A DNA stretch of 64,000 nt from an uncultured cyanobacterium (GTDB lineage Bacteria > Cyanobacteriota > Cyanobacteriia > Cyanobacteriales > Cyanobacteriaceae), in contig CAVVOP010000008.1 of assembly GCA_963749915.1 (NCBI GenBank), positions 832,001 through 896,000 of the forward strand, in the 5' to 3' direction. A program made the position numbers and the translations under genes. This document shows positions 39,699 through 58,166 of the stretch, in pieces. The notes below the pieces were generated by a model. That model was not told the DNA's origin and searched no databases. It saw only the letters and a list, made by a program, of their open reading frames with translations. Position 1 is the first letter of the stretch. Each line of letters opens with the position of its first letter.

Positions 39699-41823
39699 CC
39701 CACATTCCGCACGTCAAACTGTATAATTTCAGATTATGAAATTAGAGACTGAAAAGTGACTATCAAAAGAAACTCTCAGTATGTTTTTTAAGTAAAAATA
39801 CTCAGTTACAAGTTAGTTCTCTAAATAATTAAGAGAACTTAGATAAATTATTATAAAACTAAGCCTATTAAAGGGATAATTAAATTAAGTTTTTAAGGGA
39901 ATTTTGATGATGATTTCCTCAGAAGAAATACAAGTTCAAACTATTAATCATTTAGGATTAATCGCTGGAATTATAGATGAAATTGGCCTTGAAAAAATTA
40001 TTAATGATGCCCTTGGGATTGACGAGAGGGAAATTGTCACAGCTGGTCAAATAGTCAAAGCAATTATACTTAATGGATTAGGATTTATTTCTCGCCCTCT
40101 TTATCTATTTCCACAGTTTTTTGAAGACAAAGCCACGGAACATTTAATCGGAAAAGGAATACTACCAGAACATTTGAATGATGATAGGATTGGGAGAATA
40201 ATGGATAAACTTTATGAGAAAGGATTATCTTCATTATTTTTAATAATAGCTTTGGCCGTAGTAAAAAAATATAAGATCAACATCGATTTTTCCCATTTGG
40301 ATTCAACTTCTTTTGCGGTAGAGGGCAAATATAGTCAAGAAAAAATTACCGGCAATTTTGTTAAAGAAAATACACAACAAGAGCTAATAAATCAAATTCC
40401 AATTAAGATAATTAGAGGTTATTCCCGTGACCATAGACCAGATTTAAAACAATTTATTCTGGATTTAATTGTAAGTAGTGATGGCGATATTCCCTTATTT
40501 TTAAGAGTAGCAGACGGCAATGAAAATGATAAAGCAATGTTCGGAAAAATAGCTTCTGAATACAAATCAATGATAGATTTTGAGACAATGATAGTGGGTG
40601 ATAGTGCTTTATATACAGAAAATAACCTCAAATTAATGAACGGAATGGAATGGTTATCAAGAGTTCCATTATCAATAAAAGATGCCCTCAATTTGGTTTC
40701 AGAATTACCATCATCTGATTTTATTCCTAGTAGTTTAGAGGGATATTCATGGTATGAAGTAAGGAATAATTACGCAGAAATTGAACAGAGATGGCTAATA
40801 GTAGAAAGTGAAAAAAGAAAAGTATCAGAGCTAGAAAAACTTAGAAAAAATATAGAGAAAGAAAAAGAAAAAACGGAAGAAAAATTGAAGAAATTGATGA
40901 AAGAAGAATTTAGCTCGTCACCAGGAGCAGAAGAAATAATATTGACACTGAATAAGACGTTAAAATATCATCAAATAACCGAGATAAAAATTAGCTGCAT
41001 TGAATTAAATAATCAAAAGAAAAAAACAAAAAAGAAAGAAGAAAAATCGGGAAAAACTTATCAAGTTACGGCTATTTTGAAATCAGATTTAACGAAAATA
41101 AACGAATCAAAAAAAAGAGCAGGAAGATTTGTGTTAGCTACAAATAGATTGGATAAAAGTAAATTTAATTCTGATGAAATTTTAATTAAGTATAAAGAGC
41201 AACAAGCCGCAGAAAGAGGTTTTAGTTTTCTGAAAGATCCATTATTTTTTGCCGATAGTGTGTTTTTAAAAACCCCAAAAAGAATCGAAACAATGGCAAT
41301 GTGTTTTTGGGGTTATGTCTGTTAGTCTATTCTTTGGGGCAAAGAGAAGTGCGTCGCTTATTAGAGGAGAGAAAAACGGGGATAAAAAATCAGCTAGGAA
41401 AACTAACGGAACGTCCAACGTTAAGATGGATATTTCAATGTTTTCAGGGGATTCATTTAGTAATAAATCAAGGAATAAAACAGATAGTAAATCTAACAAA
41501 TGAACGAAAACTAATTTTAAGTTTTTTCCCGATTTCTTGTCATAATTATTATATTTTATCTGGATAACTTATGGGATTTAAGAGTCTAAACATTCTCAAT
41601 TATAATACCATAAATAAAGAATAGAAAACTGATAGATTTGCTCTGTTTATTTATTCTCATTAAAGGTGAAGTTATTGACAATGAGATTTTAATTTGAGCA
41701 AAGTTCGCAAGTACAAAACGCGAATAAAGAAGATATTGAGTATGATTACTTATATTTTGTCCAAAATAAGTTGCTTGGTTTTAATACTTTTATCATCTTA
41801 CAAAGTGACGTGCGGAATGTGGG
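39699..41823 (+). mobile_element. IS1634-family insertion sequence
   Basis: 18-bp TIRs CCCACATTCCGCACGTCA / TGACGTGCGGAATGTGGG around the transposase; no target duplication. Confidence 0.9.
39904..41567 (+). pseudogene. IS1634 transposase with a frameshift near 41305 (real or sequencing error)
   Basis: HLGLIAGIID, HLDSTSF, GYSRDHRPDLKQ, ERGFSFLKDP; C-terminal LCLLVY..PTLRWIFQCF lies in a second frame. Confidence 0.85.
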
Positions 41824-42124
41824 TTACAGATTAACTAAATCATTTCCCAAAGAAGAAATCTATGGTTTAACCAGTCAGATACGCCGATGCTCTGTAAGTA
41901 TCAGTAGTAATATAGCTGAAGGTTACGGACGCAGAAGCACAGCTGAATATATCAGATTCTTAAACATAGCTCAGGGAAGCTGTAATGAATTGGAGACTCA
42001 ATTAATTATTGCTCAGAGAATTGGTTACTTAACGGTTGAATCTATCAGAGAGATTAACCAAGAATTATTAAGCATTACCAGAATGTTGATTAGTCTTACC
42101 AACAAACTTAAAGAAAAACTCTAA
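41824..42124 (+). pseudogene. Four-helix-bundle protein (23S rRNA IVP family), N-terminus removed by IS1634
   Basis: FPKEEIYGLTSQIRR, SNIAEGYGR, IAQGS..ELETQL; the coding match begins exactly at the IS end. Confidence 0.8.
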
Positions 42125-44066: not shown

Positions 44067-44747
44067 TCAGGTCAGACCTTTGGTGTCATCTTCGAGTTCC
44101 TCGACCATCCACTCACCACCGACCTTATCCCACTTCTTGACCTTAGCCAGTAAGTAAGCAAAGCAGGTGTTCTCGGGAATCTGAACTTTGCTAGAAGTAG
44201 TTGATGAGGAACTGGCTCCAACGTTCAAAGTGAAGCCCGATGTTCCCAGGGGGGCGCTCACCGAAACGCTGCCGCCAGTAGTCACCCGTGACGCGAGCTC
44301 CGCCTCCATCACGATCCACACGTCGCTCACGATCCGCGCGTCTTTCCCTTCTTCCTTAAGATTATTGCGTGCGACGTCCGCATGCTTGTTAAGCAGTCTT
44401 TTCAACGCGTTGCTGGGTACGCTGAGCTTGATCAGAACCAGGTTGGCTGATTTGGCTGCGCCGCGGCTGAAGGCAACCTGACCACCGGCAGCGGTCAGGT
44501 ACTTGATCCCAACGTTCACTTCCTTGTCGGAGAAGTTGTCCCATTCAATGAGGTAGGGGCCGGATGTCGTGACGTCAACCTTTGCAAGGTTAGCCGGACT
44601 GACGGTTCCTGCAAGGTATAAGTAAGGCGCTTTGCCCAAAGGCGTCTTCTTCTCTCCAAAAGACACAAGGTTGACATCTTCGCAACCACCTCGGAAATAG
44701 CTCTTGCCGGAGTAGACAAATTTGGAGTCAGAGATTTTAACTGTCAT
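44067..44747 (-). CDS. Gasdermin-like pore-forming protein (candidate)
   Basis: By-eye similarity to the gasdermin N-domain (LSVPSNALKRLL, ARIVSDV, KVQIPENTCFAYLLAKV); GGAG RBS; GC-richer than host genes. Confidence 0.6.
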   Translation of the reverse strand: MTVKISDSKFVYSGKSYFRGGCEDVNLVSFGEKKTPLGKAPYLYLAGTVSPANLAKVDVTTSGPYLIEWDNFSDKEVNVGIKYLTAAGGQVAFSRGAAKSANLVLIKLSVPSNALKRLLNKHADVARNNLKEEGKDARIVSDVWIVMEAELASRVTTGGSVSVSAPLGTSGFTLNVGASSSSTTSSKVQIPENTCFAYLLAKVKKWDKVGGEWMVEELEDDTKGLT

Positions 44748-45069
44748 GATACTTAACGTGTCTCCATAGAATTCAGATTTTTCAATTGTGCCGGACGTAC
44801 TTCATCGTTAATCAGCACTCTCAGGATATTAACCCCATACAGGATGATATCCCGAAATTTTCTGTATATTCTGTGATAATAGCAAGAAACTTTCTGGGTA
44901 ACATGCTAAATAGTTATACTATCAAGAAATATTCTGGATATCATATTAGGTAGGTCAAAACCTCCTAAAAAATTTCTTATAAATTTGTTTTATTCAATAT
45001 AACTGAAAAACCATTACCGAGATATTTTTCTTAACATATATTTATATCTAGCTTGAAATACAGTTAAAA

Positions 45070-45306
45070 ACATAGTCTTTTTGCCTTCGGTTTATCTCAA
45101 AGGCTACTGTTTCCGACCCTAGGTCACTGCGTGGCTGGAACTGGTGAGACAATGACACGACCGCTTTTCTATTATACCCGTTCTGTGGTGCGACTAGGCA
45201 ACACCTTAATTGAAGTCGCTCCGCCGCCATAGTTTAGTTCTACTTGCCTATAGTCTTCGTAACGGCTACGCTCCATTTATTTATTTTTGCCTTGCGCACA
45301 GATCAA
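45070..45306 (-). repeat. ~235-bp structured non-coding element, copy 1
   Basis: Near-identical inverted copy at 55795-56031. Confidence 0.9.
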
Positions 45307-45369
45307 AGTTCACTGTGAAAAATGAGAACGGGTGAAAAGAAGCTGTTCTTTCGTTGGGGGTTTGTTCCC

Positions 45370-45654
45370 GTGGTTTCTTTCCGTGTTGTTTCTGGTTCTG
45401 CGTTGGCTTGTTCTGCGGTGTCTTGGTGGTTGCGTCCGGGGCGTTCTGGTGGTGGCTTCCGTCTGGTTGCCCGTTTTCCTTCCTTGGCTTTGGCTTCTTT
45501 GTTTGCTCGGCGCTGGGCTGGTGCTTGTGGTTTCTCGGCGGTGGCGGTTCGTCCTTGTCCTGCTGTTCCGGGGTGCTGGGTTGTGTCTGTTCCCGTTGTT
45601 GTTCCTGCGTCCTCGCCCGTTCGTGGGTGGGGTGCTTGGTCGGCTCTTCCCTAG
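45370..45654 (+). CDS. Adenine-free gene, 94-aa hypothetical protein (frame also open from ATG 45322)
   Basis: GGGGG-9 nt-GTG start; no A from 45342 to 45652; the sole A is in the in-frame TAG; terminator follows. Confidence 0.65.
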   Translation: MVSFRVVSGSALACSAVSWWLRPGRSGGGFRLVARFPSLALASLFARRWAGACGFSAVAVRPCPAVPGCWVVSVPVVVPASSPVRGWGAWSALP

Positions 45655-45661
45655 TGGCTCT

Positions 45662-45694
45662 GGTGGGGGTTGTTGCCCCTGCCTTCTTTTTTTT
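45662..45694 (+). terminator. Intrinsic terminator of the A-free gene
   Basis: GGTGGGGG-TTGTTG-CCCCTGCC hairpin followed by TTCTTTTTTTT. Confidence 0.7.
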
Positions 45695-45947
45695 GTCGTT
45701 AAACTTTAACTGCCCTTCTGCCTTCTGCCTTCCTGCCTTCTTTAAGATCCCAAGTATATGTGATACATACAATAAATTTAGGGTATGCTAATGCAACCTT
45801 TTCGTACCCTTTGACAGCAAGACTCTTTTTCCCTACAGTTATTTATATAAAAAGTCGATGATTTTTTATTATCAGCAAAACCCCTGAAGTGTAAAATAAC
45901 TACCAAGGGCTTGGTAGCTATCGATTTTAATCTGATTAATTAATATT

Positions 45948-46469
45948 ATGACACAGTTAGCTACTGCCAATGGTGGCTTGATTCAGCCTTTGAATCAGTC
46001 ACTCGATTGTATTATTGAGGCTTTAATTGCTTCTAAGCATAAGGCTTCTACCCGTCTAACTTATCGTCAAAATCTCAAGTATTTTGCTCATTATCTGATT
46101 CATGGGTTCTTAAATAAATGTCAGAAGATAGTTTTACCTGACATCCAAATCAAAGCGGTTATCGGTGAGTTTTTAGGTTTTGAAAAGGTGAGGGCCATCG
46201 CTTACACTGCTCAATATCAATTAGATTTAATTGAGGCTGATTATACTCCCAATAGTATCGGTAAACAGGTCATTCATTTAGCACCGAAGACGGTATCAGC
46301 TTTAAATAATTGGCTATCTTGTTACTCTAATCCTCAACCTGAATCACCCCTGTTTATTAGTCTAGCCAACAATACTAGAGGCAATAGATTAACAGGAAAA
46401 AGTATTTACTGCATTGTCAGAAAATATAATGTACCTAAACCTAATACTGTTACTGTAGGGAAAACATAA
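45948..46469 (+). pseudogene. Tyrosine recombinase remnant (internally deleted)
   Basis: STRLTYRQNL SAM-like start and ALNNWL..PLFISL..RLTGKSIY..VRKY; the catalytic R and HxxR/Y segments are missing. Confidence 0.7.
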
Positions 46470-55794: not shown

Positions 55795-56031
55795 TTGATC
55801 TGTGCGCAAGGCAAAAATAAATAAATGGAGCGTAGCCGTTACGAAGACTATAACTAAGTACAACTAGACTATGGCGGCGAAGCGACTTCAATTAAGGTGT
55901 TGCCTAGTCGCACCACAGAACGGGTATAATAGAAAAGCGGTCGTTCATTATCCCCACAGTTCCAGCCACGCAGTGACCTAGGGTCGGAAACAGTAGCCTT
56001 TGAGATAAACCGAAGGCAAAAAGACTATGTT
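55795..56031 (+). repeat. ~235-bp structured non-coding element, copy 2
   Basis: Inverted near-identical match to 45070-45306. Confidence 0.9.
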
Positions 56032-56139
56032 CTTTAGGGGTGACAACAACAAAACACTGTAAGCCGCTCTAGTTCTCGCTTATAAGTAGAGAATTAGTAC
56101 ATGCGTTTTGGTGAAGTTTAGTTTCAAATTGGGGTGAAG

Positions 56140-56320
56140 TGAGTCGAAGAACTGTTCGGCTAATGCTTACCAAGCTCCCCGACTCGGTTTGATTTTTGGA
56201 TGCTGTTACCAGCATCACAGGAACAGGCTGGACTCTTCGGATACACCCTCGACAGATTCCCACCTGCCAACTCTCGCGATGAAGAGACCTCCCGCCAACG
56301 CACACCACACGAAAACCGTT
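56140..56320 (-). ncRNA. 3' remnant of a DGR template repeat and downstream structured spacer RNA
   Basis: AACGGTTTTCGTGTGGTGTGC (NGFRVVC) followed by hairpins GATGCTG-GTAA-CAGCATC and GAGTCGGGGAGC..GTTCTTCGACTC. Confidence 0.7.
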
Positions 56321-57213
56321 CAGTCTTCGTCTTCCCCGATGTAAGTTACTATTTCTGACCCGAATTCGATCGCCTAAAATGCGGAAGCCAAGGAAGCTAG
56401 CACCGTATTTAGTGGCAAATAGTTGACTCTTGATGGGATGAATTTTTAGTCTGAGTATTGCCAAATACTCTTCTATTGCTATTCTGGCATCGGCGAGAAA
56501 ATCTCGTTCGTCGGCAAATAAAGCGAAATCATCAACGTATCTTACGTATTGAGAAGCTTTGAGAGTTTCTTTGACAAAGTGGTCAAAAGGATTGAGTATG
56601 ACGTTCGACCAGAATTGACTGGTTAAATTGCCTATAGGTATGCCTTTTCGCCTTTGTAAGGGGGTTAGCAAATCATCACCTGGAAAATATTCGATGACGG
56701 GTTCTTGTTCATTACTATTATCGATGATGGTATCAATCAGCCACAAAGTATCAGGACATTTGATTTTACGTCTGATTTGTCGTTTGAGAATTTGATGGTC
56801 GATACTGGGAAAATACTTCTTGATATCGCATTGCAAGACGTAGCGGCTGCGACGAAAAAACTCGATAAATCTTCTCAAAGCTCGATGGGTGACAAATCCC
56901 ACTCGGTTGGCATAAGAATCACGAATGAAAGTACGCTCAAAAATGGGAACGATTATATTACACAGGCCATGGTGAACCACTCTATCTCGGTAGGGAGCGG
57001 CAGAAATCAGACGGCTTTTAGGATCTCTGATATGAAAAGTTCGGTAATTTCCTGGTTGATATGTTTTAGCCGTAAGCTCCTGTTGTAATTTGATTAACTC
57101 CCCTTCTAAGTTGTAGTTGAAGTCTAAAATATTATCTCTAAATCTTTTGCCCAATTGTGCTTTTCTAGCGGCTAAATAGAGGTTATCAAATGTGATAATT
57201 TGGGGGTAGAGAT
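56321..57213 (-). pseudogene. DGR-type reverse transcriptase, clipped at both ends
   Basis: [51 protein letters not shown]; the first codons come from the IS1 end. Confidence 0.85.
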
Positions 57214-58166
57214 GGTCGTGCATCAAATAACTGTGGGATAGCTAATTAAGTCATGCCAAGTCCATCTCTGGTCACTCAATCCCGATCTTTGAGCGGCTGT
57301 TGTCCCTAACCGAATATTTTTCCAAATCCAGTTGAAATAGCTGACGACTAACCTTGCCGTTACTTTCGTTTGCTCCCAGACCTTGGCAAATTTATTTTGT
57401 TGCCGATGCCATCTTCCTGTCTGTTGCCGGAGAATTCCATTAGTCCTCTCCAGCCTTTGGTTTCCTTTTTTACTGATCTGGTGCTCTATCTCCTCTGTTA
57501 ATACCCTTTGATAACCCCTTAAGCCATCAGTATTCCAGTTTTGGCATTGGGTTTTTCCTTCTGTGGTCACGAGCATCTCCTCCAGAAGTTGATCCTTCCG
57601 TTTTCCTACACGAGCTGCCAGAATCAAGCCACTATCTTGAGCTAAACTAATTCCTATCCAGCAATCCCCGGCTATTATTTCGTCTGGTTCGCATTGGCAC
57701 TGTTTTGTCTTGGTGCGCGTTCCCTTGCGTCTTACGCCGACGCGGGGTCGCACCGCTTTTCGACAAATGACCACATTTCATCAGCGCTTACTTGTTCTGT
57801 TTCCACTTGTTGAACCTCAGCATTATGTATCATTTGAGCTTTTTGGCTAGCATCCCTAATCAAAGAAACTACGGTGCCGTAAGCCCTGCCACTGATTCGA
57901 CTCACTCCTCTCAGGCTACTGCCTTCAGCATGAGATTGAAGAATGGTATGAACTTCGGCCGGATTGAGATGGCGGTTATAGTAAAGAGTCTCAAAATGTT
58001 CAGGAAAAGTTTTACCACAATGAGGACATTTATAACCCTGGTGTCCTTTCTCAGTTTTGCCATGTTTGTAAGCTTTATGGTGACCGCAGAGAAGACATTT
58101 CATAGAAATAAATAGAATACTACTTTTCTCTCATACTCTCATCCCACAGATTTTTGTTTCACGACC
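57214..58166 (-). mobile_element. IS1-family element (InsA-like 57732-58103, InsB-like 57223-57774)
   Basis: TIRs GGTCGTGCATCAAATAACTGTGGGA / GGTCGTGAAACAAAAATCTGTGGGA; CxxC..CxxC, HTH, DEMWSFV, TDG, LERTNGILRQ. Confidence 0.9.

Follow-up and report, generated by a model that had tools for sequence, protein, structure and literature searches.

Why should a gene be written almost without adenine, and what would exclude that base from it? The question is raised by a window of 64,000 nucleotides (the whole stretch of cyanobacterial DNA that was analysed), in which adenine accounts for 30.9% of all bases. The longest A-free run in the window extends over 311 nt (45342-45652) and is followed by a single adenine at 45653, which belongs to a TAG stop codon, and by a further 47 A-free nucleotides (45654-45700), giving the span 45342-45700 a composition of A1 C85 G124 T149, or one A per 359 nt. 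Outside this span, the window has no A-free stretch longer than 34 nt, and the chance expectation of such runs is approximately 1e-43 per genome. These base counts reproduce the layout given in the initial annotation of this DNA, and the A-free Shine-Dalgarno-like GGGGG, the GTG start at 45370, with nine bases between the two, and the hairpin with a U tract that it had described were all recovered (Table 1). Equally correct was its statement that the tract is not a simple repeat. Both CCGG and GCGC are present inside it.

Table 1. Coordinates of the features of the locus and of related loci (window positions unless a locus is named).
Feature	Position	Strand	Remarks
Left arm, predicted Frpo-like promoter	45150..45205	-	-35 TTGCCT 45201->45196; -10 TATAAT 45176->45171; then AGAAAAG and closing stem
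Right (template) arm of hairpin	45285..45348	-	Pairs with -35 (plus-strand TTGCCT 45287-45292) and with stem 45325-45333; mismatched opposite -10
Predicted transcript	45342..45700	+	+1 = G45342, 7 bases past the -10 hexamer in the hairpin register
Shine-Dalgarno-like GGGGG, A-free	45356..45360	+	
CDS, 94 aa, WWLRP family	45370..45654	+	Small alpha/beta sandwich
Intrinsic terminator, GC stem and U tract	45662..45693	+	Stem 45662-45683, -16.5 kcal/mol
Shortened copy of post-cassette gene	45948..46469	+	Full form 331 aa in C23; no Pfam integrase match for the window piece
bAvd-like gene	41771-42124		
Reverse transcriptase (RT), DGR-type look	56069-57226		
Second leader copy, truncated	55795..56034	-	Left arm and part of right arm, without A-free gene; abuts RT
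AlkB-like gene, almost C-free on sense strand	L040 7850-8536 (pSYSX); L093 5981-6687; L153; L094; L049		

An assembly artefact is ruled out by multiple copies within the same genome and by coverage in public data. The window's genome (G000) carries four full copies, on C8 (the window contig), C7, C13 and C23, together with two partial ones, at 89-96% identity and spread over the chromosome and small contigs. The tract is also covered by contigs from four public runs of four studies. Among the differences from these contigs that fall within it, the 21 listed include no A, 22 further rows lying beyond that listing. One contig of 383 nt from an RNA run maps to 45340-45693 and offers a weak hint of a transcript.

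The translated product contains no K, N, D, E, Q, H, I, M, T or Y, as the initial annotation had it, and no codon of the gene requires A. The protein belongs to an unnamed family for which the working name WWLRP is used here, after the motif WWLRPGRSGGG...VSVPV. An alternative in-frame ATG at 45322, giving a 110-aa form, is present in records; it sits 5' of the predicted +1 and is absent or out of frame in the C7 and C13 copies. Conservation of the coding frame, a check suggested by the initial annotation, is seen in pN/pS values of 0.28-0.73, below 1 in 10/10 pairs, against 0.55-1.63 and 1.06-3.65 in the two other frames, so that only the 94-aa frame lies below 1 in all pairs (sites were counted on a C/G/T alphabet, values are uncorrected and the alignment was made in the 94-aa frame). 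At synonymous positions, none of the 78 optional A codons is used, whereas 27.7 would be expected from the codon usage of the genome. Together with purged untranslated regions (UTRs) and homologues of ordinary composition, this bears out the proposal that selection acts on the nucleic acid, and the locus is almost certainly a real gene under selection at that level.

Relatives of the protein comprise seven close members (56-77% identity) and 47 distant representatives, several of which hold 22-49% A-requiring residues, and the family is present in 20 of the 121 genomes of the order. The A content of homologues, which the initial annotation had treated as decisive, proved to be mixed: among 22 loci outside G000, the purge is shared by eight (at most 4% A), five lie at 7-12% and nine are ordinary, at 16-35%. 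Since relatives of ordinary composition exist, the WWLRP fold does not demand the odd alphabet. The AlphaFold (AF2) model of the 94-aa protein has a pLDDT of 90.6, and fold searches with it returned no clear structural relative, the best match (Z 6.0) being a common alpha/beta sandwich; a match to the SPOR domain PF05036 was obtained for 1/44 members (E 2e-4), beside the same generic best fold match at Z 6.0. Pfam and Rfam searches gave no family for the protein, and the ESM Atlas gave unnamed clusters only. Plasmid sequences gave no match in tblastn searches with the 94-aa protein or with P0049, and neither did genome contigs searched with an alignment of close relatives. The sole viral match (L009) was rejected as an antisense false positive, and a metagenome match (L055) falls on the same stretch. 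Its neighbours and its basic composition, devoid of acidic and histidine residues, make a role in nucleic-acid binding, or as an accessory domain, more probable for the protein than that of an enzyme. In L027 and L028 (1501-1810), another unnamed A-free open reading frame (ORF) with its own hairpin terminator lies 5' of the WWLRP gene.

The region upstream of the tract indicates how such a unit might be transcribed. When the minus strand of the leader is folded as DNA, TTGCCT is paired with its complement, TATAAT is left in a bubble, and the seventh base beyond the -10 hexamer is paired at G45342, where the A-free tract begins; the linear spacer between the -35 and -10 boxes is 19 nt, with two bases bulged in the fold. 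A template-strand stem-loop that rebuilds -35 and -10 boxes is the layout of the Frpo single-strand promoter, according to the available text of PMC9849209 and 10.1101/2023.02.15.528439. The leader (45070-45345) is common to the C8, C13 and C23 copies, though not C7, and to a congener, in which it precedes a different A-free gene that is DprA-like and carries A only in Asp, Met and stop codons. In G001, the same promoter hairpin is followed by an ordinary A-containing gene, which counts against the reading as a promoter; at L003 (~1505-1722) of that genome, the hairpin lies directly 5' of a gene of ordinary composition resembling the recombinase-like neighbour of the cassette. The GGGGG motif is also found 8 nt 5' of the start codon in L058 (ATG) and L060 (GTG).

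Covariation across eight aligned leaders (alignment A5) was assessed against a structure taken from the window's own fold, the window's leader being one of the aligned sequences and the eight leaders being related; on this basis, 87% of cells are paired and 9/23 pairs have changed on both sides, compared with 32-42% for slid controls and 0/500 shuffles as high. In 8/8 leaders, the template holds 0-1 T in the first 12 transcribed-side columns versus 2-7 in the nine columns upstream, and the -10 pattern NAnnnT is likewise kept in 8/8. Ten matches, several of them from Nostoc-group records and therefore related, were obtained for a second leader family, in which both arms carry CCCTTGA; the +7 arm match is seen in 9/10, and in 8 of these 9 the base before it is A, with 2-8 A in the following 100 nt. 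Other results speak against the promoter. The window hairpin is not unusually stable (z -1.0), some relatives reaching z -5.6, -3.1 and -3.0; the +7 offset is the best match (at least 5/7) in seven of 14 scoring loci out of 24 tested, the window itself scoring 4/7; the arm score per locus is not significant (p 0.03-1.0), and A-poor homologues are weakly separated from ordinary ones (p 0.017, 11 versus 10 loci). No such hairpin was found near the start of several Nostoc and Synechococcus genes for the DprA-like protein, and Rfam returned no match at E up to 5. Taken as a whole, the leader is probably a single-strand promoter with its +1 at the start of the tract. No relaxase was present among 92 neighbour ORFs scanned, and no relaxase or oriT was seen near any locus; because neither was located, assignment to a leading region rests on gene content.

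The gene content in question is best seen around the A-free DprA-like gene, whose product has a fold of the SLOG type. It matched 21 plasmid records, all cyanobacterial; of the 13 looked at in detail, most have it at the head of a cluster that includes ArdA, ArdC-like, SSB, Gp157 or Rad52/ERF genes. When one genome per species was scanned, 77 SLOG loci were recovered, distributed over Cyanobacteria, Bacteroidota, Chloroflexota, Acidobacteria, Gammaproteobacteria, Desulfobacterota and others, and the trait is also found in genomes of Chlorobium and Competibacter. After removal of two duplicates, 64 of 75 loci contain less than 5% A and 51 contain at most 3% A at four-fold sites, the search motif favouring A-free residues and not synonymous sites. 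In 28/88 loci, a WWLRP gene is found no more than ~7 kb from the SLOG gene, either directly upstream with coupled stop and start, or fused to it (L111, L117, L135, L153 and P0025), or kilobases off on the other strand. The idea of a plasmid counter-defence gene, raised in the initial annotation, is thereby strengthened, the family being found in plasmid anti-defence neighbourhoods. By comparison, a plain search for 120-nt A-free patterns matched 124 of 401 genomes, a figure that is not taken as prevalence, as only 7 of 30 fetched loci (G000 included) are gene cassettes and most of the remainder are simple repeats.

The model of the SLOG protein (pLDDT 93) has DprA as its best structural match (Z 10.9, rmsd 2.7, 127 aligned), the top seven rows of the fold search are all SLOG-type proteins, with ShosA at Z 9.3, and the model has the Rossmann-like fold of SLOG proteins; the profile match to DprA has an E value of 0.006. 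The invariant Asp is kept, GSR and GxAxGxD motifs are present, and 31 of 74 SLOG proteins end in a QLSLF-type C-terminal tail, which we take to be a beta-clamp-binding motif. Among 74 SLOG genes, the stop codons are TAG in 56, TGA in 13 and TAA in five. On Picosynechococcus plasmids (L043 8767-9290 and L051 5767-6335), a SLOG homologue that faces away from the ArdA cluster is T-poor and not A-free; T occupies 14/140 third positions in L043, and the homologue is followed by a T-poor intergenic stretch. In the records of L041, L044, L046, L045 and L048, the A-free SLOG gene is overlapped by an annotated ORF of the other strand or left without any call. Operator-like palindromes lie over TATAAT boxes at L040 8770-8795 and 9690-9765, L041 8805-8835, and L044 1600-1630 and 3160-3235, and recur 5' of genes for SLOG and AlkB-like proteins and of the ArdA cluster, separated by a small divergent ORF. 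This arrangement points to a common repressor and to induction when the element enters a cell.

A second base is missing from a neighbouring gene. Of 11 complex C- or G-depleted segments near SLOG or WWLRP genes, 10 proved to be an AlkB-like gene. The L093 copy contains two C in 465 nt, both within its two His codons, and uses none of 106 optional C; the pSYSX copy has four C in 465 nt. In both L040 and L093, a leader of ~140 nt is purged of C as well, and a minus-strand hairpin upstream resembles that of the A-free genes. Elsewhere, the depletion of C in several of the AlkB-like neighbours is mild or absent. The HxD...H...R motif is visible, while Pfam matches are weak and below cut-offs (E 0.005-0.03). 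In the accessible text of PMC3265494, slr6021/slr6080 is listed as an AlkB homolog; presumably this is the C-free pSYSX gene, and slr6022/slr6081 the A-free pSYSX SLOG gene. At L045 (6431-6988), an AlkB-like gene of ordinary composition also has a QLSLF end.

What the exclusion follows can be judged from its limits. In 73 SLOG loci, the purge fades 3' of the stop codon, from 9% A in the first 15 nt to 26% by 45-60 nt, and A-free genes face both directions on one plasmid. Selection has kept adenine out of the span between the predicted +1 and the terminator, and only there. Because the purge tracks transcription units whichever way they face and ends at +1 and terminator, protection of a whole strand for replication is excluded, and because UTRs are purged along with synonymous sites, so are codon or tRNA effects, including tRNA or amino-acid shortage and ribosome-dependent AAA cleavage. 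Motif-only RNases such as MazF (ACA) are rejected on the ground that A is removed in every context. Several agents offered in the initial annotation, namely thymine dimers, tRNA depletion, AAA cleavage and MazF, are accordingly disfavoured, leaving DarT-like attack on the template, attack on adenine in mRNA and ATP depletion as candidates. The same limits bear on avoidance of restriction or methylation, whereby an A-free strand would offer neither A/T-containing palindromes nor type I sites; ArdA and ArdC-like anti-restriction genes among the neighbours speak for it, but the purge would then not end at +1 and terminator, the flanks are unpurged and CCGG and GCGC persist in the tract, so that this account has very little probability.

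The surroundings of the gene raise a non-selective origin. The contig is cyanobacterial by gene content, and the tract lies in an island with transposases, toxin-antitoxin pairs, parA, Gp157, RT and integrase-like genes, in which the shortened gene after the cassette is tyrosine-recombinase-like by reading of the C7 and C13 neighbours. With an RT, a bAvd-like gene and a leader copy abutting the RT, the tract could be a legacy of adenine-specific mutagenesis by a diversity-generating retroelement (DGR), or of strand-biased damage. Searches of G000 nevertheless gave no match to an A-containing template repeat, for want of which a DGR variable repeat was rejected; moreover, the edges at +1 and terminator are sharp, the trait recurs across phyla, needed A codons are kept (the invariant Asp and the tail Gln of SLOG proteins) and a C-free neighbour exists, all of which leave this origin scarcely credible. 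Further elements were noted in the same genome. On the minus strand, 44067-44747 holds a 226-aa ORF with a weak gasdermin pore-domain match (E 0.003, below cut-off). At 44844-44944, 5' of the leader, a 25-nt inverted repeat and a 40-nt direct repeat occur, with several similar copies in G000. A 140-nt A-poor, hairpin-rich element is present in three copies (C10 32002-32140, C12 13809-13952 and C15 15904-16052), located in plasmid-like clusters with SSB-like and Gp157-like genes.

Non-enzymatic damage to an exposed template, above all UV pyrimidine dimers, would select against template T, and template TC is indeed the most avoided context; slr6022/slr6081 alleles, moreover, rose in a high-light evolution experiment, according to the accessible part of PMC13515095. 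However, A is used at none of the 348 synonymous positions that are dimer-proof because purines would flank the template T, and template CC is not depleted. These two results largely refute dimer avoidance, and with the trait also found in Desulfobacterota, Chlorobium and Competibacter genomes, the reading is highly unlikely.

The explanation preferred here places the attack on single-stranded DNA. The gene would serve the establishment of a conjugative plasmid, or of an integrative element, of cyanobacteria that enters the recipient as ssDNA, where the hairpin would act as a Frpo-type promoter and RNA polymerase would copy a naked single-stranded template free of thymine. Such a template would escape a host agent that modifies ssDNA thymine and blocks transcription, DarT2-like ADP-ribosylation being the known example. 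The WWLRP protein, usually co-made or fused with the A-free SLOG protein, may help to protect or rescue the incoming strand, and the C-free AlkB-like gene, whose template is free of G, may counter a guanine-directed agent such as DarT1; on this principle, a gene that counters a defence would be spelled without the very base at which that defence is aimed. The missing template bases, T for the WWLRP and SLOG genes and G for the AlkB-like gene, are the targets of DarT2 and DarT1, respectively, which ADP-ribosylate these bases of ssDNA and can block replication and transcription, as stated in the available part of PMC11825919. DarT was found in 27 of 121 genomes of the order and none in G000. Pfam and fold searches list no macro or NADAR similarity for the WWLRP or SLOG protein, and absence from the list does not exclude one. 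Known DarT2 enzymes prefer motifs such as TNTC, so the removal of every T would not be required of them, which counts against the template reading. The missing DarT of G000, the nine WWLRP loci of ordinary composition, the T-poor SLOG gene of Picosynechococcus and the AlkB-like neighbours with little or no C depletion weigh on the same side.

An RNA target within the same early unit is the principal competitor: an A-free message would evade an adenine-directed mRNA modifier or nuclease, and the C-free AlkB message a cytosine-directed one. Candidate agents are CmdT-type ADP-ribosylation at GA and collateral cleavage by cOA-activated Csx1/Csm6 or of the Cas13 type. The purge edges coincide exactly with the transcript edges, and residual synonymous A is rarest after G (17/2504, 0.7%), compared with 36/2145 after T and 179/4742 (3.8%) after C, a bias that fits a GA preference in RNA and equally a TC preference on the template. 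A and C are moreover the classical substrates of AlkB in single strands. Several cyanobacterial AlkBs rescued an RNA phage in the portion of PMC3265494 available. Against an RNA target, the partner is DprA-like with a clamp-type tail and points to DNA, long 5' UTRs are purged beyond the ribosome footprint (~140 nt before the C-free gene), and such an attack would still strike ribosomes, tRNAs and every other message; the reading is possible but on the unlikely side.

Alternatively, the unit may have been shaped to remain transcribable when a nucleotide-depleting defence drains ATP (CTP for the AlkB-like gene) or replaces it with a toxic analogue. The near context-free exclusion from +1 to terminator, a +1 that is G or C, the GTG start and the dominance of one-A stops would all suit such a setting, and nucleotide phosphoribohydrolases are among the proteins with a SLOG fold; ShosA, an antitoxin of the DprA type, acts against a toxin disturbing purine metabolism, as given in the accessible text of PMC11961720. 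Yet translation would still need ATP for tRNA charging, and the context bias of residual A is not expected. To our knowledge, no link between AlkB and CTP exists. Nucleotide depletion is consequently improbable.

Sense and template targets are indistinguishable by sequence alone. Attack on the template is placed first because of the match between the missing template bases and the targets of DarT2 and DarT1, the single-strand promoter and the DprA-like, clamp-tailed partner; that the template strand, and not RNA or the nucleotide pool, is the target has slightly better than even chances, and the full account, with evasion of an ssDNA-template attack by an establishment gene, is held tentatively, at just short of even. 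With the same reserve, mobile elements of several phyla may carry "three-letter" transcription units, read from the incoming single strand, in which the transcribed span omits the base attacked by a defence and the product remedies that damage.

The feature itself is real and striking and represents a new kind of gene design, in which the promoter is well supported and the attacking agent putative; what the initial annotation lacked are the predicted promoter, the partner gene of DprA type and the AlkB-like neighbour free of C. No description of base-excluding genes was found in the literature searched, which was mostly open-access text without supplements. The accessible text of a composition study of leading regions, limited to Enterobacterales, deals with GC content, palindromes and codon adaptation and contains the word "adenine" 0 times (10.1101/2025.04.03.647016). 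If the proposed explanation is true, defence would be evaded in a new manner, by alphabet instead of inhibitor or motif loss; the absent letter would indicate what chemistry a defence uses, whether or not that defence is already known, and the two protein families, both unnamed, would count as new factors that counter the modification of bases in ssDNA. Synonymous recoding offers a direct test of what hits a plasmid in its first minutes as ssDNA. The leaders provide a candidate family of single-strand promoters for cyanobacteria, whose plasmid transfer is poorly mapped, the proteins are natural examples able to fold from ten amino acids, and the records that call the opposite strand as a gene, or nothing, reveal an annotation gap.

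Comparison with known systems helps to place this design. ACA-free mRNAs escape MazF by lacking its motif, and the present units would similarly escape by lacking the target; here, however, the whole base is gone, UTRs and ribosome-binding site included, at the cost of ten amino acids. The SLOG partner shares its fold and the GSR and GxAxGxD motifs with DprA/Smf and ShosA, from which it differs as a single domain of ~170 aa with a QLSLF-type tail, A-free and carried on mobile elements; the WWLRP gene of this locus is not itself a SLOG. With the Frpo/ssi elements of F and ColIb-P9, the locus has in common a template-strand stem-loop with the -35 and -10 boxes in register and ArdA, ArdC-like and SSB neighbours. 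This likeness is one of layout and neighbours and would extend to early expression from ssDNA; base exclusion is absent from the available text of PMC9849209 and 10.1101/2023.02.15.528439. DarTG1 and DarTG2, with the orphan phage antitoxins AdfN and AdfA, involve the same two ssDNA bases and a counter-defence borne by mobile elements, whereas the immunity proposed here would be provided by the gene's own alphabet, a route that the available part of PMC11825919 does not describe.
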